Virus record (IMG/VR): IMGVR_UViG_2645727743_000024 | Origin: a virus | Lineage: Duplodnaviria > Heunggongvirae > Uroviricota > Caudoviricetes | Length of the DNA: 9,819 nt | Strand: one strand, 5' to 3' | Part shown: positions 1 through 9,819 of the stretch, piece after piece | Layout: each line of letters opens with the position of its first letter | How positions within the stretch are numbered: position 1 is the stretch's first letter | Position numbers and translations under genes: made by a program | The notes under the pieces: generated by a model | Databases searched by the model: none | What the model saw: the letters and a program-made list of their open reading frames with translations, nothing else | Told to the model about the DNA's origin: nothing

Positions 1-168
1 GAAATGCTGAAAATTAATCCACAAATTACCGAAATGGTAGCTAAATACGCTGGGTGTTCTGTAGAAGAAGTAGAACGATGTGTTGAAAAATATTTTTCTC
101 CTTCTTCTCCGTCTACACCTTCCATTAATGAATTAATCAAATTAAAAGCTAAGGAGATTACTAAATGA
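1..168 (+). CDS. 3' end of an upstream gene (partial, start lies left of the window); probably a head-morphogenesis gene by position, function not determinable
   Basis: Frame 1 is open from base 1 for 55 codons and ends at TGA 166-168, overlapping the next ATG (165-167) in an ATGA arrangement typical of translationally coupled phage head genes. No start is visible, so it is absent from the ORF track. Confidence 0.35.
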   Translation, partial: EMLKINPQITEMVAKYAGCSVEEVERCVEKYFSPSSPSTPSINELIKLKAKEITK

Positions 169-527
169 TTATTGATTTAGACACTCTGTTTCCAGTTCGA
201 AAGACTTTCACAGATATTGTAAGTTATTGTACTGATCCGTTTGCCTCTGTAGAAAACAAGGTTTTTGCTTCTCTTCCTGCTGATGTTGAGTGCGGCGACT
301 TGATCACCAGCACGGGCGCTAAATATGAATCAGGAGATGATATCTATGTTGTTATGAGTGAATTTGTAACGGCTGGAGCAAACAAGCCTGTAGATGTTTT
401 ACGTAGCAATGCTGGCCTTGTGTGCATCAAAGCTGATGCGCTGAATGCTGTAAGTGAAGCAGCAAAAACAGCATTAATTAAAAAAGGCTTCCAGCTTGAA
501 GGCTTTAATACGGTTTTCACTTCTTAA
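165..527 (+). CDS. hypothetical phage head protein (possible decoration or head accessory protein by position, directly upstream of the major capsid gene)
   Basis: 120-aa ORF with AAGGAG at 151-156, 8 nt before ATG 165; stop TAA 525-527 lies 18 nt before the capsid gene. Position mirrors lambda D before E, but I see no convincing sequence similarity to gpD. Confidence 0.6.
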   Translation: MIIDLDTLFPVRKTFTDIVSYCTDPFASVENKVFASLPADVECGDLITSTGAKYESGDDIYVVMSEFVTAGANKPVDVLRSNAGLVCIKADALNAVSEAAKTALIKKGFQLEGFNTVFTS

Positions 528-545
528 TAAAAGGAATAATAATAA

Positions 546-1574
546 ATGATTCTAGGTAATGATTACGTTGATTTAGCTCCTCTGTTCTCTGCGCATAGCA
601 CTAGAAACTATCTGCTTTCTACTCTCGACTTCACTGATTCTGTAGGGGTTACATCTCATAAAGTAGCTGTTTCCCAGCTTGTCGAAAGCAACGAATCTCT
701 CTTTAACAAAGAGACAAGCCGTTTTAGTTCTGAACACAACGTTACTAAGCGAGAACAAGGTAAAGAATGGCTGATTGAAATCCCGTATTTTCTTCGTGAA
801 GATGTGATCCGTCCTTCTGATGTTCAAGGCAAACGTAAGCCAGGCACTGATTTTCAGGAAACACTCACTGATATCTATGCGGAATATATCGCTAAACACA
901 ATGTTGCATTCCAGCGTACTAAAGAGAGCGTGTTGGCGGCTTCTTTGTTCTCTGGCAAAACTTACACGCCTAAAACTGATGATGTGTTAATTGAGTGGGG
1001 CAAGCTGTTTAATGTGACACCTATGAAAGCCACTGTGACCGCTTCCAGCACTGACACCACGAAGATTTTTAAAGAATTTGATCAGATTGCTACGAATATT
1101 ATCGACAGAGCACAAAGCCAGGCGTCAGCGGTAGAGCGTATTGTTGTTTTCTGTAAGCCGGAAGCCTTCTCTGCAATTCGATTCTCTGCGGGTATGGCAA
1201 ACGCATTCCAGTATGTAAGCCCACTGGAAGAGGGGAACGTTGTGTATCAGCGTCGTGACCTGCTGCCAGGGGTGACAGCGTTCACTATTCCAGGAACTAA
1301 CATTGATGTTGTTAAACTGGTAGATCCGCTACACCTTGCACATATGACCGCTGACGCTGTAGCTGTGCCTAAATTCTCTAAGGGTAGCGGAATTTATACC
1401 AATATCTTCGGGGCTGCTTCCAGCACCTTTGAACTGATTAATGCCGCTCCTGCTGAGGTGTACAGCTATAGCTATGAATCTTCTCGTGGTGATGCTGTTA
1501 ACGTTGTTACAGAGAATAGCCAGATGGTTGTAAACCACGGCGTTGGCTTCTCAGTTCAAATCACTGTAAAATAA
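546..1574 (+). CDS. major capsid protein, lambda gpE-like (Phage_cap_E family)
   Basis: 342 aa, close to lambda gpE (341 aa). Recalled gpE-like stretches: APLF, HKVAVSQL (gpE EKVYLSQI) and IVVFCKPEAFSAIRF (gpE IIVFDPKGWALFRSF). AAGGA at 531-535 precedes the ATG; a strong terminator follows. Confidence 0.8.
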   Translation: MILGNDYVDLAPLFSAHSTRNYLLSTLDFTDSVGVTSHKVAVSQLVESNESLFNKETSRFSSEHNVTKREQGKEWLIEIPYFLREDVIRPSDVQGKRKPGTDFQETLTDIYAEYIAKHNVAFQRTKESVLAASLFSGKTYTPKTDDVLIEWGKLFNVTPMKATVTASSTDTTKIFKEFDQIATNIIDRAQSQASAVERIVVFCKPEAFSAIRFSAGMANAFQYVSPLEEGNVVYQRRDLLPGVTAFTIPGTNIDVVKLVDPLHLAHMTADAVAVPKFSKGSGIYTNIFGAASSTFELINAAPAEVYSYSYESSRGDAVNVVTENSQMVVNHGVGFSVQITVK

Positions 1575-1592
1575 TATTTTAACGTGTAATAG

Positions 1593-1627
1593 AGGCGTGG
1601 CGTGTATTCACGCTTCGCCTTTTTTTA
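1593..1627 (+). terminator. rho-independent terminator downstream of the major capsid gene
   Basis: Stem 1593-1604 pairs with 1609-1620 (12 positions, one T-T mismatch and one G-T wobble), 4-nt loop TATT, then TTTTTTT at 1621-1627. Confidence 0.6.
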
Positions 1628-1659
1628 TTTATTTTTAAATTTTGAGAGGTGATTAAAAT

Positions 1660-1863
1660 ATGGAAGTGATTTTGAAATCAAAAAATGGTGTACACGTACA
1701 TTTAGATGCTAATGATTCTAGAGGCTTGTTAAATCTGAAATATCTATGTTCTCTTTTAGATGTTCCCTATGAAGGAGTAAAAGCCCGTATGTTCAGACTA
1801 AACGAGAGTATTGATCAGGCTCTACACCATTTCTTAAGCAAAGAAGGTGGTAAAAATGATTAA
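1660..1863 (+). CDS. hypothetical small protein (67 aa), first gene of a three-gene cassette
   Basis: ATG 1660 preceded by GAGAGGTGA (1644-1652); stop 1861-1863 lies 14 nt before the next gene's ATG. No recognisable motif. Confidence 0.5.
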   Translation: MEVILKSKNGVHVHLDANDSRGLLNLKYLCSLLDVPYEGVKARMFRLNESIDQALHHFLSKEGGKND

Positions 1864-1877
1864 TAAGGGGATTTTAA

Positions 1878-3707
1878 ATGTTAGAAATTAACACTTCTAA
1901 AATTAAGAACACAGTAACATTTAGTGTAGATAAAGACAGCTTGAAAAAAGCGAAAGACTCTATTACAGGCTTAAAGGAATTCGCAGAAAATATCAAGCCA
2001 GCTAAATTGAGATTTGATAGTGTCACTAAAGGCTATAAGAAAGCACAAAGTGAAGTAGACAAGATTGCTCAACAGAAAGCTAAAACAGAAAAACAGAATC
2101 AAAGAGCACAAGCTGCCGCAGCAAGAGCACAGGCAAGGCAACAGCAACAAATAGCAGCACGTAAGGAGAAAGCTGAACTAAAGCTTTTAGACGTTGGATC
2201 AAGCATTAGTGCAATGCACCGCCTCTCTGTAGCGGAACAATATAAAGCTATTGCACAGGCTAGAGAGATAGCCAAACAATATGAGCAAGGGGCTATCTCG
2301 CTTGCACGTATGAATAGCCAGATGAAACGCCTACAACAGCAACAACGTAAGATTAATGGCAATAGAAAAGCACAATTAGCCCCCGTTAAGGGAGGATCAG
2401 GGAATTCCGCCACTATGGGCGCTCTGTTATTTGGAGGCGCTACGGCTGCCGCTGGCGTGATGGCTATGAATAAAGCAAATGAATTCGTTACTAATAGTTT
2501 TGCCAATGCTGAGACACAAGGAGAATTAATCCAACGTGCAAGGCTTGGCGGTGTAGACGTTAACCAGATGTATAATATTACAGAATGGGCGTATAGAAAC
2601 GGCGTTGACTCTATGATGGGGGATCAAGGGGCTAGGAAATACCTGGATCAGATGAAAGATGTTAGGGAACGTGCCGCAAAATCCTATAGTGAAGCTGAAT
2701 TAGTGAAAGACAAGAAAACCGGAAAATCTGAATGGAAAGGCGGTGATAACGCTATTAATGAACTTCTAAACATTGGAGTTATTAACAAAAGCGACCTTAA
2801 AAAATTTGCTGATAATCCAGCCGGATTAATTTCTAAGGCTGTTAATGGAATGATGAAAAAAGGGTTTTCAGATTCTCAAATTGGACAACGTTTAGAAGAC
2901 CTGGGCGATGATTTGATGCTTACATCAAAATATTGGCAACGTTCCGTTAAAGATGTACAAGAAAGTATTAATCAGCAAAAAGCCTCTGGAAAATGGCTAA
3001 CAGAAACACAGCAAGACTCTATTGTTAAATTCAGAGAACTAAACAGACAGCTTTCACAGCTTTCTGATGCAAGACAAGTAGCATTCGTAGACGGCTTTAT
3101 GAAATCTCTTGATCCAAAAGTAACGGAAGAGTTTATGAAAAACCTTTCTAATCTCACTCCGTATTTTACGAAGCTAGGGGAAGCTGTAGGAAGTCTCTTT
3201 GAGGCTATTATGAAGATTGTAAACTGGTTTAATCGTAATGATGATAAGACAGATGCTATTCAGAAAAATTTAGGTGATGCACCGCCTTTGAGTAATGAAG
3301 GGATGAAACAGCATCTTTCTAATCTCGTTCCTGACCAATATAAAGGCGCTGGCACTGCAACAACTACACCTGATAATAGTCATTCTCTATTTAATACGAT
3401 TAAGGGATTGCTTTTCGATGATAATTCTTCTGTGTCAGATGTAAAAATGTCAGTCAGCGAAGCACCGATAACCAATCTCAAACAGGGTGCTTTAAATAAT
3501 CTTGCAATGACAACTCCGGCTTATAATTTATCTCCTGTATTCAATCTGAATCCTACATTTGAAGTGGTAACGGAGGTTCCGCTTACTATTAATTCTGACA
3601 CATCCAGATTAAGCGATTATGTGGATTTTACAGCGAGAGCAAGTCGGGATAGCTTCTTGAAATCATTAACATTAACCAGCTTATCAGGACAATCTAACGG
3701 CGGGTAA
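1878..3707 (+). CDS. hypothetical 609-aa protein with Gln/Ala-rich coiled-coil region and a Gly/Ala-rich hydrophobic segment; possibly a virion internal, ejection or tape-measure-like protein
   Basis: RBS AAGGGG 1865-1870, 7 nt before ATG 1878. Residues about 55-160 are Q/A/K/R-rich heptad-like (AQQKAKTEKQNQRAQAAAARAQARQQQQIAARKEKAELK); residues about 170-197 GGSGNSATMGALLFGGATAAAGVMAM look membrane-spanning; the C-terminal third is S/T/N-rich. Function is inferred from architecture only. Confidence 0.75.
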   Translation: MLEINTSKIKNTVTFSVDKDSLKKAKDSITGLKEFAENIKPAKLRFDSVTKGYKKAQSEVDKIAQQKAKTEKQNQRAQAAAARAQARQQQQIAARKEKAELKLLDVGSSISAMHRLSVAEQYKAIAQAREIAKQYEQGAISLARMNSQMKRLQQQQRKINGNRKAQLAPVKGGSGNSATMGALLFGGATAAAGVMAMNKANEFVTNSFANAETQGELIQRARLGGVDVNQMYNITEWAYRNGVDSMMGDQGARKYLDQMKDVRERAAKSYSEAELVKDKKTGKSEWKGGDNAINELLNIGVINKSDLKKFADNPAGLISKAVNGMMKKGFSDSQIGQRLEDLGDDLMLTSKYWQRSVKDVQESINQQKASGKWLTETQQDSIVKFRELNRQLSQLSDARQVAFVDGFMKSLDPKVTEEFMKNLSNLTPYFTKLGEAVGSLFEAIMKIVNWFNRNDDKTDAIQKNLGDAPPLSNEGMKQHLSNLVPDQYKGAGTATTTPDNSHSLFNTIKGLLFDDNSSVSDVKMSVSEAPITNLKQGALNNLAMTTPAYNLSPVFNLNPTFEVVTEVPLTINSDTSRLSDYVDFTARASRDSFLKSLTLTSLSGQSNGG

Positions 3708-3741
3708 TTCCCGCCATAACATTACAAGGAAAATTATTATT

Positions 3742-4455
3742 ATGGCGACCGCCGGGATTTTAACCATACGTGCAGCAAATACTCCAGAACAACACGTTCA
3801 GGCTGTTTACAAAGCAGAACAAGATATAAACTCTACAAAAAACGAAAATAGCAAAGCTAATAAAACAAAAGGAGAGAATGGTTTTGCTATTGTTACCAGT
3901 GGGCTGGCTTCTTCTGGCAATGATGTTTATGAAAATTATATGGCACTGGCTTTTGACAGTGTTGACGATGTGAACGTGAGACGTTCGGCAGATGTTACAA
4001 GCTACCCCGTAGAAAATGGTGCTACTGTGTCTGATCACGTTCAAATTAAAAACAATAAGTTTTCTCTTAAAGGAAGGATCACTGAAACACCGATTAAAAG
4101 CGATCCTGGCTTGTTAAAGAGTGCAGGGGTGAACGGGAACAGAAGATCATTAGCAATTGATTATCTGAATCAGATTATGGACAGTAGACAGCCTTTTCTT
4201 CTTGTTACAGAAAATAAAACTTTTGAGAACGTTGTTTTAACAGGCATCGAATACACAGAAGAGGCAAGCGAATCCCTGGTATTTGATCTTAGCTTTGAGC
4301 AGATCAGGCTCGTTTCGTATGGCACTGTAAACACTGTAGCTATCAAAACACAGCCATCTAAGAACATCGGGGCGAATATGAAAAAACGTGTTAACACTGA
4401 AAAATCAAGTAGTGAAGGTGAAGACACTATTACTCCTGCCTTTAAACAGGAATAG
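3742..4455 (+). CDS. hypothetical 237-aa protein, third gene of the cassette
   Basis: RBS AAGGA 3726-3730 before ATG 3742; the N-terminal about 60 aa are K/N/E-rich low complexity, the rest has alternating hydrophobic and polar stretches. No recognisable catalytic motif. Confidence 0.7.
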   Translation: MATAGILTIRAANTPEQHVQAVYKAEQDINSTKNENSKANKTKGENGFAIVTSGLASSGNDVYENYMALAFDSVDDVNVRRSADVTSYPVENGATVSDHVQIKNNKFSLKGRITETPIKSDPGLLKSAGVNGNRRSLAIDYLNQIMDSRQPFLLVTENKTFENVVLTGIEYTEEASESLVFDLSFEQIRLVSYGTVNTVAIKTQPSKNIGANMKKRVNTEKSSSEGEDTITPAFKQE

Positions 4456-4495
4456 CCGTAAACGCCCCTAAAACGCTCTGTAACGATGTAATTAT

Positions 4496-4530
4496 AAAAG
4501 AGGCTACCAATCTATATTGAGGCCTCTTTA
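4496..4530. terminator. hairpin between convergent genes (possible bidirectional terminator)
   Basis: AAAAGAGGC (4496-4504) pairs with GCCTCTTTA (4522-4530) at 8 of 9 positions, but the loop is 17 nt and the flanking T-runs are weak. Confidence 0.25.
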
Positions 4531-4536
4531 TTGCGT

Positions 4537-5871
4537 CTATGGTGTTGTTTTACGCCTTAAATTTGATTTTTTATTGATTGATAAGCCTTTCTCTATTTCA
4601 GGGTAGCGTAGAAGCTCAATATATTTTTTAAGCTCTACTGGAGAAGCTGCATTCTTGCTATATGTGCGGAATGTCTCTGTATTGCCGCGTGTATGGCCCA
4701 GGAGAAGGGCGATCCTGTCTTCTGGAATTTGATTTCGATCAAGAAGCTGTGCTACTCCGTGTCTCAGAGAATGAAACACCTTCCTTTCTGTTCCCTTTTC
4801 CCCTAAAGCCTTTCGTTTAGCTCTTGTAAATCTCTGCGTGTGCCACGTGGAACGCTTACCATCAGCACGCTCTGTAATGCTGGCGTGATAGAACAAAAAG
4901 CCATTATGAGGCTTTTCACGCAGCGACAACACCAACGGAGTGATAAGGCTATGTACAGGCACAACACGTGCCGCAGCTTTCGTTTTTCCCTGTGTGATTT
5001 CAAAACACAGCACACCTTCGATCTCTTTCACATCGTCTATTGTGAGACTTGCTATCTCATTGATCCGCATACCTGTATATAAACCGATAAGACACAAAGC
5101 CATCATTTCTTTGTTTTCTGCTGAATTACCGGAAAATACTTGCAACACCTGCAATAGCTCTTTGTTAGAAAATGCCTCGTAGCTCTCTCTACTTTGTGCC
5201 ACATCAAGCCTATGCCCTCGCCAGGGGGAGAGCGCCCTTTCTGGCGCATCGTGGTAACGTGATGAAGCTAACTCCCATAGCTGGGCCATTGGGCTGATAT
5301 AATTTGCAATTGATTGTTGTGAAAGGGTTTTTTGCATGTGTTCTATCCAGCCTGTAACAGTGGTGCGGCTTACATCTTGCAATGCAATATCAGGCTTTTT
5401 ACGGTAGGAGAGAAACATCTCTACCGCTTTTCTTGCCTTAGCTAAAGTGGCTGGCTTCTTCTTCGTGCTGTTAATTGTCAGGTAGATTTCAAGAATTTTA
5501 AGCAATGACGGACACGAAGACGCTGTATCTTGCATTCTGGTAGCTGTTTTGGCGTATTTAGCCTTACTGCGTAACAGTTCCAGCGTGTTCTCTATTGTGC
5601 TGTTTACAGGAGCGACACTCTCCCGTAGACAATGGTATTCATCTGCAATCTGATCACGCTTTCTACGTGCAACACGAAGATTACTTGTGTGTAGACTTCT
5701 GACAAACGTCCTTTTTCCTTCAAAAAAGGGCTGCATATACACAGGCAGCGTGATCCTTAAATAGTAGTTACCGTAAGAATCACAGATTATGTATTGATTG
5801 GGCTTGTATCTCATAAACTCCCCGGCTAAAGTGTCGGAGCGTTTGTAATGTGAAAATTGATTGTAACGCAT
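4537..5871 (-). CDS. tyrosine recombinase / phage integrase
   Basis: 444-aa ORF with catalytic-domain motifs: Arg in TGMRINE, HSLRHG, LLGH and a C-terminal Tyr in RTYSK. ATG at 5871 has no Shine-Dalgarno; an in-frame ATG at 5814 (425 aa) has GGGGAG 3 nt upstream. The N-terminus does not resemble the P4-type arm-binding domain as I recall it. Confidence 0.85.
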   Translation of the reverse strand: MRYNQFSHYKRSDTLAGEFMRYKPNQYIICDSYGNYYLRITLPVYMQPFFEGKRTFVRSLHTSNLRVARRKRDQIADEYHCLRESVAPVNSTIENTLELLRSKAKYAKTATRMQDTASSCPSLLKILEIYLTINSTKKKPATLAKARKAVEMFLSYRKKPDIALQDVSRTTVTGWIEHMQKTLSQQSIANYISPMAQLWELASSRYHDAPERALSPWRGHRLDVAQSRESYEAFSNKELLQVLQVFSGNSAENKEMMALCLIGLYTGMRINEIASLTIDDVKEIEGVLCFEITQGKTKAAARVVPVHSLITPLVLSLREKPHNGFLFYHASITERADGKRSTWHTQRFTRAKRKALGEKGTERKVFHSLRHGVAQLLDRNQIPEDRIALLLGHTRGNTETFRTYSKNAASPVELKKYIELLRYPEIEKGLSINKKSNLRRKTTP

Positions 5872-5876
5872 AGAAA

Positions 5877-5906
5877 ATGATAATTTTTTCTATAAGATTC
5901 AATCAA
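5877..5906 (-). promoter_or_regulatory. candidate sigma70 promoter for the integrase
   Basis: On the - strand: TTGATT (5906-5901), 18-nt spacer, TATCAT (5882-5877). Predicted start falls near 5871, which would favour the 5814 start codon. AT-rich context makes chance matches likely. Confidence 0.2.
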
Positions 5907-5957
5907 TTAGTAATGGTCGTAGGTGATGGCATTAACACGAGATTAATCGAGTGTTTT

Positions 5958-5976
5958 ACTCCTATTATCGGCACCA
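5958..5976 (+). repeat. attachment-site core: 19-nt copy of the 3' end of tRNA-Thr (thrW type) without a tRNA body
   Basis: ACTCCTATTATCGGCACCA matches my recollection of the thrW 3' end (T-stem 3' half, acceptor 3' strand TATCGGC, discriminator A, CCA). Upstream sequence GTGTTTT does not continue the tRNA, and no GCCGATA 5' acceptor strand is present about 70 nt upstream. It lies between the integrase 5' end and the CP4-like module. Confidence 0.6.
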
Positions 5977-6255
5977 TTAAAATCAAATTGTTACGTAAGA
6001 TCTTATCATTCTCCCACCAAAAAATTATCTTAATGTAACAGCTGGTGTAAGTAAATTCTATCAACGAAGATCAATCTTATCTACTGACCAAAAAGGCCTG
6101 ATAGGGCTTCGCTCACTATACATCCTTGGCTGCAGGTTTAGTTGTACACCACTCCTAAATTTAATGTGTTGGCAATGTGTTCAATAAAGCTCGAACAAAT
6201 TAGCTCATTATGATCGGTTAATACTTCAACTTCTGGTTGCATGATTGTTTGTCCG

Positions 6256-6292
6256 TAAAAAGATAACGCGCCTGCCGGGTAGTAGCAGGCGC
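6256..6292 (-). terminator. candidate rho-independent terminator downstream of the toxin gene
   Basis: Perfect 8-bp stem GCGCCTGC (6268-6275) with GCAGGCGC (6285-6292), 9-nt loop; on the - strand followed by GTTATCTTTTTA, an interrupted T-run. Confidence 0.4.
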
Positions 6293-6357
6293 ATTACGCA
6301 ATAGGTAAACAAGGGAGGAAGTTCAGAAATGTAAATCGGGAAGGTTGTACGCAATGT

Positions 6358-7037
<680 letters not shown>

Positions 7038-7055
7038 TACAGTTCTCCACTATTG

Positions 7056-7277
7056 TCAGTTCAGGGTGATGCTCATCAGGCAGGTATAGGGCCCATTGCG
7101 GTCCTGGCGGCGTTCGGCGTATACCGCGAGGACTCCGGCGATATCCGGAACGTCCCTGCCGGTGTAATGACAGACGCTACCGTGCCACTGGTATTTGCCG
7201 GTGCAGTAGCGAAAGATTCGGGACTCAGGATGCTGGCGGTATATCGTCATTGCCCTGCGTTTACTGATAATTTTCAT
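7056..7277 (-). CDS. DUF987 family protein (YeeT/YkfH-like)
   Basis: 73 aa from ATG 7277 (MKIISKRRAMTIYRQHPESRIFRYCTGKYQWHG...), resembling recalled YeeT. GAGG lies 8 nt upstream. The track start at 7289 is a non-ATG (TTG) start overlapping the RadC-like stop. Confidence 0.7.
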   Translation of the reverse strand: MKIISKRRAMTIYRQHPESRIFRYCTGKYQWHGSVCHYTGRDVPDIAGVLAVYAERRQDRNGPYTCLMSITLN

Positions 7278-7285
7278 GTAATACC

Positions 7286-7762
7286 TCAAAGCAGACCGTG
7301 TTCTGCGAACGAATAGATTTGCCTGCCACCGACAATCAGATGGTCAGGGACACGGATATCCACCAGCTGAAGCACCTGAACCAGTCGCTGCGTGAGGGTT
7401 TTGTCGGCCTGGCTAGGTGTCGTCTCGCCGGAAGGATGGTTATGCGCGAGTATCACCGCCGCCGCGTTGAAGTGCAGAGCACGTTTGACCACCTCCCGGG
7501 GATGCACCTCGGTGCGGTTAATCGTGCCGGTGAAGAGCGTTTCATGGGCAATCAACTGATTCTGGTTGTCCAGATACAACACCCGGAACTCTTCCCGCTC
7601 AAGCGCGGCCATATGCAGTCGCAGCCATTCACGTACGGCGTGGGTAGAGGTGAAGGCTACGCCGGGCTCATGCAGGTGGCGGTCCAGAGCCCTGAGCGCC
7701 CGCTGAATGAGACGCCGGTCCTGTGGCGTCATCTCGCCGGGTAAAAAGGAAAGCTGTTTCAT
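7286..7762 (-). CDS. RadC-like JAB/JAMM-domain protein (YkfG/YeeS/YfjY family)
   Basis: 158 aa; HNHPSG motif (LAHNHPSGETTPS) and C-terminal DHLIVGGRQIYSFAEHGLL typical of the family; AGGAG precedes ATG 7762. Confidence 0.85.
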   Translation of the reverse strand: MKQLSFLPGEMTPQDRRLIQRALRALDRHLHEPGVAFTSTHAVREWLRLHMAALEREEFRVLYLDNQNQLIAHETLFTGTINRTEVHPREVVKRALHFNAAAVILAHNHPSGETTPSQADKTLTQRLVQVLQLVDIRVPDHLIVGGRQIYSFAEHGLL

Positions 7763-7777
7763 CTGTTGCTCCTTCGG

Positions 7778-8236
7778 TCAGTCGATAATACGCAGAATGG
7801 CGTGAGCCTCTGGATGTTGCATGGCATACTCCCGCAGGCGGTAATAGTGTGCGGTCATCGCGTCACATTCTGTACGGCAGGCATGGTGGCTATACGCAAT
7901 CAGGCAGACAGCAATACCTGCTGCTTCTGCACTCATTTGGGCATCGTTACCGTTCAGGCAGTTAAACAGACGCCATGTCTCATCGTTGTCAGGCTCGGGG
8001 GACATAAATGCGCCGCCATTGCTGAGGGTGTAGAACGACCAGATACCACCGCTGTAGCCCTCACAGAAGCGGTCCATCCAGGCGAAGATATGCGGCTCCA
8101 GGAGTAGCCACTGCGGGATAGCGCCAAAGTACTGTGGCCAGAAATCGATACGCTGTTCATCGGGGACCGGCGTGACGGTCAGTTCAAATTCGGGTTGGTT
8201 AGCGGGTGCGAGGTCGTGCTGCGTCTGTGTTATCAT
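7778..8236 (-). CDS. antirestriction protein, ArdB/KlcA family (YfjX/YafX-like)
   Basis: 152 aa from ATG 8236 (MITQTQHDLAPANQ...). The track ORF extends to 8449 but would overlap the upstream DUF905 gene; the internal ATG has GGAGA upstream and follows a terminator-like hairpin. Confidence 0.8.
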   Translation of the reverse strand: MITQTQHDLAPANQPEFELTVTPVPDEQRIDFWPQYFGAIPQWLLLEPHIFAWMDRFCEGYSGGIWSFYTLSNGGAFMSPEPDNDETWRLFNCLNGNDAQMSAEAAGIAVCLIAYSHHACRTECDAMTAHYYRLREYAMQHPEAHAILRIID

Positions 8237-8251
8237 GGGTATGTCTCCGTC

Positions 8252-8280
8252 AATAAAAACGCCAGCGGCGATGGCTGGCG
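8252..8280 (-). terminator. candidate rho-independent terminator between the DUF905 and antirestriction genes
   Basis: 7-bp stem CGCCAGC (8260-8266) with GCTGGCG (8274-8280), 7-nt loop; on the - strand followed by TTTTTATT (complement of 8252-8259). Confidence 0.45.
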
Positions 8281-8333
8281 TATGGGGATATAAAGTGTGT
8301 TCGGGGAGGTGAATGCGGGTAAATGCTTCGCGA

Positions 8334-8573
8334 TCAGCGGGTAGCCGTGTCTGTACGGATGCCTGAGGTGCGGATATAGCGGTTAAGACCTTCACCGGCA
8401 TCCGGCTCAAAGTTCCATGCCCGCCAGACCATCCGGCCTTCAGTATCACGAACCACCAGACGGAAGTGACTGCCCTGGTCGTCTTCGAGTGTGATATTGC
8501 TGTACGTGGTAGTGACCGCTTGCGCTTGTCTCCGGGTGAAAGGCCCCGGTGGCAGCAACACGGATTGGGTCAT
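8334..8573 (-). CDS. DUF905 family protein (YkfF-like)
   Basis: 79 aa from ATG 8573 ([66 protein letters not shown]...). AGGAG lies 7 nt upstream; the 150-aa track ORF is an N-terminal extension. Confidence 0.7.
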
Positions 8574-8588
8574 TTTCGGGCTCCTGAT

Positions 8589-8623
8589 AAAAGAAAACCC
8601 CGGCAGCCTGCTAGCTGTCGGGG
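8589..8623 (-). terminator. candidate rho-independent terminator downstream of the secreted-protein gene
   Basis: 9-bp stem CCCCGGCAG (8598-8606) with CTGTCGGGG (8615-8623), including one G-T wobble; 8-nt loop; on the - strand followed by TTTTCTTTT, then the DUF905 RBS. Confidence 0.45.
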
Positions 8624-8649
8624 TGGATTTGCTGGGGAAGATGCTACTA

Positions 8650-9117
8650 TCAGTCGTTGCTGCAGTCTCCGGGAGTGGACAGAACTTTCTCAGCGTTCTT
8701 CCGGTCCGCAGTGAAGGTCCCTGCTTTGTGGTCATTGACGTAGACGTCGAACTGCCCGGCCTCAGAGATATTGCTGATGAAGTCAAACCAGGCGTTATCG
8801 CCGTTACGCCAGCCCAGGCTGGACGGAATAATGTACTGCTGGTGATCCATCACTACGGTGATAGTAGTGTCGTCATCGTGCGAACTGACCATCTTGTCAT
8901 CGGCAAGGGTAAGAAAGACTGAATGCTGATAGAAACCATTCTGGTCCGGGTTCCCTGTGCAGTTGATGGTAAACGTCTTTCCGCTGGCTTCGGTCACGCT
9001 GTATTCCGTATTGCCCTGACCGTAACCCTGCTGCCAGAACCCCGGGATAGCAGAGGCATTAAAGCTCGCGAGCAGTACACCCGCCAGCATAAACCGACTT
9101 AGTGAAAGTATTGTCAT
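8650..9117 (-). CDS. secreted protein with N-terminal signal peptide (YkfB/YfjT-like)
   Basis: 155 aa; [23 protein letters not shown] looks like a Sec signal peptide with AxA cleavage site; AGGAGA lies about 6 nt before ATG 9117. Confidence 0.75.
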
Positions 9118-9139
9118 TCTTGTCTCCTTTGTCGTTGTT

Positions 9140-9583
9140 TTATTCCTGATTGTCAGGGTTTGAGGGTATCAGCAGTCGCCCCATCAGTTTGCCGTCATGG
9201 GCGTACTCAAAGTATTTTTCTTTGGTATACGGGTCCGTCACCTCCTGGTATTCCAGTTTGATGTTATCGGCAATACACAGCGCATTCATCAGTGGCTGGA
9301 CGGTTTTTTCCTGCATATCCACGAGGTAGTAGTAACTGCCATCCTCGCAGCCATCGGGCGACTGGCGGGTACGTAAAACCTGCAAGGTGGGACCGGATAA
9401 GTAGTCAACCTGTGACCATTCTTCGCTGACATCATCCTGGTGGCTGACCACATCACTGAAACGCGGTGGGGTGAGGTCCTTAAATTTACTGATGGCCTTC
9501 AGGTCATCACTTCTGTCATCGCATGCGATGAGAAACAGAGTGGTGGCAACCAGCGCCAGCAGAGGCAGTGTTTTACGTTTCAT
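9140..9583 (-). CDS. lipoprotein (YafY/YfjS-like), predicted inner-membrane retained
   Basis: 147 aa; signal peptide plus lipobox LIAC followed by Asp at +2 (Lol avoidance signal). Its ATG (9581-9583) overlaps the upstream gene's TAA stop (TAATG). Confidence 0.8.
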   Translation of the reverse strand: MKRKTLPLLALVATTLFLIACDDRSDDLKAISKFKDLTPPRFSDVVSHQDDVSEEWSQVDYLSGPTLQVLRTRQSPDGCEDGSYYYLVDMQEKTVQPLMNALCIADNIKLEYQEVTDPYTKEKYFEYAHDGKLMGRLLIPSNPDNQE

Positions 9584-9819
9584 TATTTTTTTCCTGAAAT
9601 CAGACGAACCACTTTGGCAAAGACATAAATGCCCACGAAAATACCCACCGGCACGCCGACGAACGGTGTCAGCGCGACACTGGCAGCACCGGCTGCGCCA
9701 CCTCCCGTCAGCAGTGCGGCAACAGTGGCAAGGGTCAGGGCCGCGAGACTGTCGGACACCCCGGTTTTGTTCAGAATGATGACGATGACAACAATGGCGA
9801 TAATGGCAATAACGGGCAT
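9583..9819 (-). CDS. small hydrophobic membrane protein; its ATG coincides with the window edge, so it may be N-terminally truncated
   Basis: 78 aa with two hydrophobic, Gly/Ala-rich predicted transmembrane segments; stop overlaps the start of the lipoprotein gene, suggesting translational coupling. Confidence 0.5.
   Translation of the reverse strand: MPVIAIIAIVVIVIILNKTGVSDSLAALTLATVAALLTGGGAAGAASVALTPFVGVPVGIFVGIYVFAKVVRLISGKK

Follow-up and report, generated by a model that had tools for sequence, protein, structure and literature searches.

We analysed a 9,819-nucleotide stretch of viral DNA (the window; IMG/VR virus record IMGVR_UViG_2645727743_000024, Caudoviricetes) and in particular a three-gene cassette at positions 1660-4455, which lies between a major capsid gene and an integrase gene and belongs to a 12.5-kb integrative element of Enterobacterales chromosomes (Table 1). 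A first-pass annotation made from the letters alone had described three tightly spaced plus-strand genes for proteins of 67, 609 and 237 amino acids (aa), each with its own Shine-Dalgarno site, a terminator behind the capsid gene and an integrase gene converging on the cassette, and this description is confirmed. The three genes are in the list of open reading frames (ORFs), purine-rich Shine-Dalgarno-like stretches precede each of them (GAGAGGTGA before 1660, AAGGGGA before 1878 and AAGGAAA before 3742), and the terminator-like hairpin has a 9-bp stem with five GC pairs followed by GCCTTTTTTT. The integrase matches PF00589 (1.4e-17), DUF6538 (4e-9), Phage_int_SAM_5 (2.8e-7) and phrog_1 (2.1e-33), and its orthologue in RefSeq is annotated as a 425-aa integrase. 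The same annotation found no motifs to assign in the cassette proteins, whereas two of the three give strong and specific profile matches, which identify them by homology as tail proteins.

Table 1. Coordinates of the window features and of the phage nuclease and element initiator genes compared with them (L numbers denote comparison loci; L001 is the locus in NZ_AP021891)
Feature	Sequence	Position	Strand	Remark
70-aa ORF, 3' part	window	4..168	+	start cut by window edge; opens structural operon
120-aa protein gene	window	165..527	+	always directly upstream of capsid gene
Major capsid gene, lambda-E / HK97-fold type	window	546..1574	+	Pfam, PHROG and PDB profile matches
Intrinsic-terminator-like hairpin and T-run	window	1592..1616	+	between capsid gene and cassette
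67-aa protein gene	window	1660..1863	+	always immediately upstream of tape-measure gene
Predicted tape-measure gene, 609 aa	window	1878..3707	+	homologue of phi92 gp134 (659 aa)
Predicted tube-initiator (Dit-like baseplate protein) gene, 237 aa	window	3742..4455	+	homologue of phi92 gp135 (236 aa)
Tyrosine integrase gene	window	4537..5871	-	converges on cassette
attR core, 20-nt copy of thrW (tRNA-Thr) 3' end	window	5958..5977	+	right element end
Phage nuclease gene, muut gp094	L003	4058-5056
Phage nuclease gene, Mt1B1_P17 gp053	L030	1141-2127
Phage nuclease gene, inny_184	L031	1018-2121
Element initiator gene	L001	17757-18452
Element initiator gene	L022	3243-3896
Element initiator gene	L026	7252-7905
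Element initiator gene	L017	7176-7886
Element initiator gene	L016	7179-7910

Proteins of the cassette and of the capsid operon

By homology, the 609-aa protein is a tail tape-measure protein. It matches the PHROG tape-measure family phrog_16051 (1.8e-53, residues 120-609) and the solved PDB chain Phi92_gp134 (1.5e-37), and BLASTP aligns it with gp134 at 55% identity over the first 66 aa and at 27% over a further 475 aa. Measured in 25-aa windows, identity to gp134 reaches 84% at the N-terminus and 56-78% at the C-terminus but drops to 12-52% between them (about 30% overall), and the protein of the element is 50 aa shorter. All 134 phage matches found by tblastn fall in Stephanstirmvirinae-type myophages of 130-153 kb; these relatives are virulent phages of the genera Justusliebigvirus and Phapecoctavirus. 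The 237-aa protein is, on the same kind of evidence, a tail-tube initiator: it matches PF21821 (Dit_like) over profile positions 1-126 of 127 (3.4e-29; 101.9 bits against a cut-off of 24.2), the PDB chain Phi92_gp135 (2.1e-78; 60% identity to gp135) and the tube initiators 9cuy_K (2.7e-13) and Pam3 gp17 (1.4e-6). The phi92 tape measure gp134 and tube initiator gp135 have been solved in PDB entry 21vq, gp135 being a hexameric tube initiator in the phi92 cryo-electron microscopy structure (PMC13450770).

The tail genes of these phages follow the order tube, chaperone, small ORF, tape measure, tube initiator, plug and hub, and the cassette is colinear, at the DNA level as well, with the stretch of small ORF, gp134 and gp135 in phi92, ZCKP1, phiWec188 and 05F01. 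The likeness to phi92 thus comprises full-length homology, the same order and spacing, and conserved gp134 tips. The differences lie in the surroundings: phi92 is a 148-kb virulent genome, whereas the cassette sits in a 12.5-kb chromosomal element without the chaperone, tube, sheath, plug and hub genes that flank gp134 and gp135 in the phage. By themselves the two tail-gene annotations are ordinary, and the interest lies in this context and in the nucleases found on the phage side. The 5' ends of the tape-measure gene (1878-1965) and of the initiator gene (3772-3850) show 88-91% nucleotide identity to the phage genes over about 80 nt and are much closer to them than the rest of each gene, which could be due to gene conversion involving helper genomes or to the N-terminal peptides being strongly constrained. 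At two E. coli loci, L015 and L025, the tape-measure gene is split at ~12240-13520 by an insertion of about 1.3 kb with minus-strand ORFs of 301 and 136 aa, probably an insertion sequence (IS) element; the flanking genes are intact.

The 67-aa protein is kept as an ORF of 59-67 aa in all family members. Its relatives give sub-threshold helix-turn-helix (HTH) matches, with sigma region 4 as the best profile match in the PDB (E 0.06-0.1), and distant relatives with repeated copies of the module match I-HmuI_NUMOD-like and Sigma70_r4_2 profiles. These weak but mutually consistent hints make a small NUMOD or sigma-70-region-4-like HTH at residues ~25-61 a lead, not a finding. An AlphaFold2 (AF2) model (pLDDT, the model's confidence score, 77) contains a β-hairpin and two helices, and structure comparison with it returned no significant fold match. 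Two candidate assignments were rejected. A tail assembly chaperone (TAC) is contradicted by the lack of any Pfam or PHROG TAC match in the cassette protein or its family members, while, for contrast, phi92 gp132 matches Phage_TAC_15 at 1.6e-22; a counterpart of the phage gp133 is contradicted by a BLASTP E value of 0.69 and a family-against-family hhalign probability of 0.1%. The earlier suggestion of an unfamiliar virion module fits two of the genes, those of the tape measure and the tube initiator, which are colinear with gp134-gp135.

Profile searches assign the capsid protein to the lambda-E / HK97-fold type (PF03864 9.3e-16; phrog_29 9e-17; PDB 9zbi_A 7.4e-13 and Phi92_gp124 1.6e-5), although it is very divergent from phage capsid proteins; its close relatives, like the homologues of the 120-aa protein, occur only in Enterobacterales chromosomes. 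The 120-aa gene occupies the slot that the cement protein gp123 has in phi92. The idea of a cement-protein homologue found no support, with no detectable similarity to phi92 gp123 and no PDB match; the AF2 model of this protein is unusable (pLDDT 39). The 70-aa ORF is complete at L001 (19956-20168), is kept family-wide as an ORF of 66-74 aa and is assigned to no family by Pfam or PHROG. At L001 ~19690-19955, just upstream of the start of the window, an alignment of eight members contains a conserved strong sigma-70-type promoter (TTGACA-N17-TATAAT), followed by a hairpin-rich untranslated leader of 300-880 nt before the structural operon. This leader has no Rfam match and could be an antitermination leader or a small RNA.

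A family of small integrative elements

The window shows the right-hand 6 kb of the element; the upstream half and the initiator type of this copy lie outside it. In the closest complete genome, NZ_AP021891, the corresponding region is located between the tRNA-Thr gene thrW and the CP4-6 island, and the element measures 12,492 bp (L001 13496-25987), bounded by repeats of the thrW 3' end. The attR core has one exact match in the window (none expected by chance); apart from this 20-nt thrW remnant, no tRNA gene was found in the window. This core also bounds the element in L001, L016 and L018, at spacings of 12,492, 12,540 and 12,577 bp, and at attR the GC content is 40.6% on the left and 52.9% on the right.

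In the element, a serine invertase gene is accompanied by a 2-kb non-coding stretch in which five TACCCCTATCAA iterons adjoin an AT-rich tract, by a few small ORFs and by a gene for an HTH_36 protein that resembles replication initiators of phages (PHROG 1e-10); two further small ORFs are present besides the capsid gene, the cassette and the integrase gene. No ORF of the L001 element has a Pfam or PHROG match to a portal, terminase, protease, scaffold, connector, tube, sheath or baseplate protein. Without a complete virion gene set, the element should be unable to form particles alone. An Rfam search of the 2-kb non-coding region and the rest of the element gave no match at E <= 0.1. The serine DNA invertase (179 aa; PF00239 9.6e-34; L001 14536-15665, beyond the window) is framed by 20-nt inverted repeats ~1.1 kb apart with the common core TGTGCAAATTTT, and may form a Hin-like invertible switch with them; in other genera a tyrosine recombinase of ~185-205 aa takes its place.

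Related loci were examined in K. pneumoniae, Enterobacter, Citrobacter, Serratia, Sodalis, a second E. coli lineage and a metagenome. All of them share one order, namely ORFs of ~70 and ~120 aa, the capsid gene, an ORF of 59-67 aa, a tape-measure gene of 609-650 aa and then the integrase gene, and none contains another virion gene. The contig from the metagenome, 12.3 kb long, represents an integrated copy and no circle. Seven members, with capsid identity down to 56%, measure 12,492-14,279 bp from attachment site (att) to att and always lie at tRNA 3' ends, a narrow size range that is compatible with a small capsid, as in a satellite; T=4 heads accommodate satellite genomes of 15-20 kb (PMC10945586). 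The constant core consists of the capsid, the small protein and the tape measure. The tube initiator is optional; the main E. coli lineage, Citrobacter and Sodalis have it.

The starting point of the first-pass annotation, a lambda-like prophage, was mistaken, the genes being part of a 12.5-kb integrative element without almost all other virion genes. It had also held that confident matches to tail proteins with synteny in complete phages would make the cassette an ordinary structural module; such matches with such synteny exist, but that conclusion does not follow, because the lambda-like premise is wrong. One detail of it is borne out: the slot between tape measure and integrase varies across the family, some members having the tube initiator there and others unrelated small ORFs. 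That variability, including ORFs of 42 aa and 92-155 aa that replace the tube initiator in Klebsiella and Enterobacter, would suit the proposal that the three genes are accessory cargo, i.e. morons, defence or anti-defence genes. We nevertheless regard cargo as extremely improbable: a PADLOC-DB 2.0 search with five proteins (E <= 0.01) matched no defence family, two of the cassette proteins are clear structural homologues, and the pair of small ORF and tape measure is a universal core of the family.

Among 5,426 complete E. coli genomes, 299 contain the whole cassette at about 90-96% identity, always in the chromosome, with no plasmid location found, and about 180 further genomes contain a second tape-measure type. 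We compared the window genes pairwise with 13 other E. coli copies. The ratio of non-synonymous to synonymous substitution rates (dN/dS) was 0.00-0.10 in the tube-initiator gene, 0.09-0.20 in the tape-measure gene, 0-0.2 in the gene for the 67-aa protein, 0.10-0.19 in the capsid gene and 0.07-0.22 in the 120-aa gene, and dS among the copies was 0.07-0.47. The cassette genes are conserved and under strong purifying selection, and their function is maintained, because dN/dS values of 0.0-0.2 occur at a dS far above that of a recently fixed remnant. Such selection is difficult to reconcile with a decaying remnant of a larger prophage, in which deletions would have left an integrase, a capsid gene and two tail genes. 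The incomplete virion gene set and the hotspot region, with its tandem islands and IS elements, would fit a remnant. However, elements of this size with this minimal gene set are found in at least seven genera, located at different tRNA sites and with intact att repeats; the element has its own iteron replicon, with initiator modules swapped between otherwise near-identical copies; and the nearest relatives of the tail genes belong to virulent phages, which do not lysogenise. We consider the remnant explanation very improbable.

The thrW site of NZ_AP021891 holds two tandem islands, each ended by a thrW 3' repeat, the second of which RefSeq labels as a 112-nt 'tRNA-Ser'. The first island (L001 2567-13495; 10.9 kb) contains TraJ/TrbJ/TrbL remnants and its own integrase. 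To the right of attR, the window (5978-9819) continues into a CP4-6-type island of 53% GC. According to the annotation of the matching RefSeq locus, it contains a YkfI/CbtA-type toxin (6358-6762, minus strand), a YafW antitoxin (6720-7037, minus strand), a DUF987 protein, a RadC-like JAB protein (7286-7762, minus strand), an antirestriction protein and homologues of YkfB, YafY and YpjK.

Traces of contact with phi92-like phages

A megablast search of the whole element against 50,697 phage records matched Stephanstirmvirinae only, and yielded patches shared with Justusliebigvirus genomes of 428 bp (96.5% identity, phage muut), 79 nt (91%) and 87 nt (88.5%). The GC content of the element (39-41% in window 1-5977) is close to that of Stephanstirmvirinae segments (36-43%; L002, L003 and L027-L031), compared with 53% in the host flank. 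The 428-bp patch encodes the N-terminal DNA-binding domain of the element's initiator-like protein, and the protein identity in muut is 98%. In the 332-aa muut protein, this initiator-type N-domain is joined to a second HTH_36 domain and a C-terminal endonuclease domain, which matches phrog_681 (2e-18) and, as an isolated domain, MUG113 above the cut-off (2.9e-5) and T5orf172 below threshold. The gene also occurs in phages Mt1B1_P17 and inny, with the C-terminal part of muut but different N-terminal domains, which share 82% identity with the initiator domains found in two further variants of the E. coli element, and the constant second HTH_36 domain of the phage nucleases is 85-93% identical to that of a fourth variant.

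On the element side, E. coli copies with capsid genes 92-96% identical carry at least five initiator types, which are less than 30% identical to each other. The iterons covary with the initiator type (TACCCCTATC, AATACTATAA, TAGGTCACTG and AATTCTGTTA), and the iteron array lies beside the AT-rich tract (L001 15983-16190; equivalents in L008, L016, L018, L022, L026 and L012). This change of iteron with initiator type, in elements whose structural genes remain 92-96% identical, indicates that replicon modules are swapped. The N-domain of the type-A initiator, the type with the TACCCCTATCAA iterons, was found in only one of the 50,697 phage records, and transfer was therefore likely from element to phage. 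Read from genes, this pattern would be hard to explain unless the elements replicate in cells infected by these phages and harm them.

The same comparisons bear on the choice of helper. If the element were a satellite of some other, unsampled and possibly temperate myophage, its resemblance to phi92 would reflect shared ancestry of the tail module. The capsid, which resembles Stephanstirmvirinae no more than it does Felix-O1-, PB1- or KIL-type phages, the overall tape-measure identity of only ~30%, and the members in Serratia and Sodalis, for which the collections searched hold no known phi92-like phages, are all compatible with such a helper. It does not account for the near-identical DNA patches in Justusliebigvirus genomes, for the three Stephanstirmvirinae phages whose nucleases have initiator-matched domains, or for the confinement of every phage tape-measure match to this one group, and we judge it improbable. 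A virulent phi92-like myophage, of Justusliebigvirus or Phapecoctavirus, is the most likely helper.

A proposed satellite with chimeric tails and its relation to known systems

We consider it probable that the element is a satellite of virulent Stephanstirmvirinae and that the cassette is a tail-core module for building chimeric tails. The sequence comparisons show the homologies, the boundaries and anatomy of the element, synteny throughout the family, purifying selection and exchange of sequence with phi92-like phages. From these we infer dependence on a helper, packaging, small capsids, incorporation of the tail proteins and an effect on tail length; portal, scaffold, terminase, tube, sheath, hub, wedges and fibres would come from the helper, because the element lacks these genes. 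We propose the following hypothetical course of events, in which (i) phage infection activates the element, which then replicates; (ii) the element capsid protein forms small heads, or redirects assembly to them, for about 12-14 kb of DNA; (iii) the element tape measure, together with the tube initiator where present, starts tail assembly on hubs of the helper, where both conserved tips of the tape measure, N- and C-terminal, dock onto the helper's hub, tube, sheath and terminator; (iv) helper tube and sheath enclose the element tail core to give a chimeric tail about two tube rings shorter than that of the helper, i.e. ~22 instead of 24 rings if length scales with 609 versus 659 aa; and (v) phages deploy nucleases with stolen initiator DNA-binding domains, to which satellites answer by swapping replicon modules. 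The 67-aa protein would act as a small, possibly DNA-binding partner. For the fuller picture, of a new Enterobacterales satellite family that preys on virulent phi92-like phages, contributes only a capsid protein and a tail core (the tape measure, in some members with the tube initiator) to hybrid virions and is engaged in a live arms race of nucleases and replicon swaps, we see the case for and against as evenly balanced.

The tail proteins of an element that is still a parasite of phi92-like phages might instead act mainly as dominant-negative decoys, which dock onto hubs and tubes of the helper, spoil phage tails and thereby defend the population, and not as working components of satellite particles. 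Tape-measure tips, the regions in contact with other parts of the tail, that are kept at 84% and 56-78% while the middle drifted to 12-52% would be expected of such decoys, tail assembly is a proven target of defence systems (Tab, PMC10884400; Tai, PMC11364771; Rta, PMC12987554), and the signature of a phage counter-weapon indicates that the element harms the phage. Purifying selection nevertheless acts on the whole length of the tape measure including its middle (dN/dS 0.09-0.20), its length is held at 609-650 aa across genera, the accompanying capsid gene points to particle building, and the tape measure of a Vibrio cholerae satellite is structural and needed for transfer (PMC12987554). Assembly interference as the main role thus appears rather unlikely, although decoy and structural roles of the tail proteins could coexist.

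Several observations weigh against a satellite with hybrid virions. With phi92 gp124 the capsid protein shares only 22% identity over its full length, and the element has no portal, scaffold or protease, so that compatibility with the head parts of the helper can only be presumed. No pac or cos site was identified in the element, and its iterons were not found in phage genomes, those of the proposed helpers included. Many family members (Klebsiella, Enterobacter, Serratia and the second E. coli lineage) lack the tube initiator, so that the lifestyle does not depend on it. An interrupted tape-measure gene was seen in 2 of the 13 E. coli loci examined, and all 12 IMG/VR loci are prophage calls from isolate genomes, none being derived from a virion.

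If the satellite reading is correct, the element and its helper would form the first such system for a virulent coliphage, and chimeric-tail piracy would have arisen independently a second time. About 5-9% of the complete E. coli genomes would then carry a parasite of phi92-like and Phapecoctavirus phages, with related elements in Klebsiella, Enterobacter, Citrobacter and Serratia. A private tape measure would be a recurrent satellite strategy, and origin-directed chimeric nucleases a general phage counter-measure. Phages of the phi92-like/Phapecoctavirus group are commonly isolated and have been proposed for therapy and biocontrol; the element could therefore affect phage yield, the host range of transduction and the outcome of treatment. 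To our knowledge, the established E. coli satellites, namely P4-like elements, phage-inducible chromosomal islands (PICIs) as well as PICIs that form capsids (cf-PICIs), all exploit temperate helpers, and we know of satellites of virulent phages worked out in depth so far only for the PICI-like elements (PLEs) of Vibrio with phage ICP1.

The element does not belong to the E. coli satellite classes with which it was compared. Among its ORFs there is no Pfam or PHROG match to Psu, Sid, Delta or the alpha primase of P4-like elements, nor to AlpA, a primase-replicase or TerS/Rpp/Ppi of classical PICIs. The cf-PICIs, reportedly described as capsid-encoding satellites by Alqurainy et al. in 2023, have a complete head module with an HK97-family capsid, of which the element has only a capsid protein, of E-type, and lacks the protease, portal, head-tail connectors and small terminase. 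The supply of a capsid-protein homologue by the satellite also links it to the EPIPs of Mycolicibacterium and to SaPIbov5, whose Ccm redirects helper capsid size (PMC8569155). EPIPs, in addition, carry a tape measure and have an altered tail length (PMC12822802). Both cf-PICIs and EPIPs have a fuller head module (portal or adaptors, scaffold and small terminase) than the capsid gene and two small ORFs seen here, and the helpers of cf-PICIs, SaPIbov5 and EPIPs are temperate, unlike the one proposed here. A preprint on EPIPs of December 2025 states that tape measures are absent from satellites except PLE11 (PMC12822802), and putative tmp genes were noted only in PLE-like elements and some cf-PICIs (PMC12987554, Nature). 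In open-access papers and bioRxiv, we found no description of this Enterobacterales element family or of a satellite of phi92-, rV5- or Stephanstirmvirinae-type phages.

The closest match to the phage nucleases is Odn of ICP1, an origin-directed nuclease with a copy of the PLE initiator's DNA-binding domain; it cleaves the origin of PLEs, which evade it by exchanging their replicons (Barth, Nguyen and Seed, eLife 2021, PMC8263062). In both systems a phage protein fuses a satellite-initiator DNA-binding domain to a nuclease of the GIY-YIG superfamily (T5orf172/MUG113), and the satellites show replicon-module swapping. The identity to the satellite domain is 82-98% in the coliphages compared with 42% for ICP1 Odn, and the coliphage nucleases, known from their genes, carry two initiator-type domains each, unlike Odn.

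The closest comparison overall is with the PLEs of V. cholerae, satellites of the virulent T=13 myophage ICP1 that encode a TAC, a tape-measure protein (TMP) and, in some variants, a baseplate hub (PMC12987554). PLE tails are chimeric, assembled from satellite and phage parts; the TMP is 95 aa shorter and the tails are 10 nm shorter, and deletion of the TMP cuts transduction by 96-99.9% (PMC12987554; 2026). The phi92 head is likewise T=13, and its tail has 24 tube rings (PMC13450770). Like a PLE, the element is small and integrative, with a virulent T=13 myophage as its helper, here proposed from genes; it has its own tape measure, shorter than that of the helper and encoded beside a small partner gene; a baseplate or tube-base protein occurs in some variants only; and the helper phages have an origin-directed chimeric nuclease, here predicted from sequence. 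The parallel with the PLE trio of TAC, TMP and hub is incomplete, which again counts against the satellite reading, because the 67-aa protein is not a detectable chaperone. Further differences are that the element encodes a capsid homologue, whereas PLE uses the external scaffold TcaP on the helper coat protein, and that the hosts are Enterobacterales with a proposed Stephanstirmvirinae helper. Of the traits of the PLE family (large serine recombinase, RepA_N, TcaP and NixI), the first two are replaced here by a tyrosine recombinase acting at tRNA genes and an HTH_36 initiator, and membership was rejected on gene content. By analogy, we suggest that the element works like a PLE while standing outside the PLE family.

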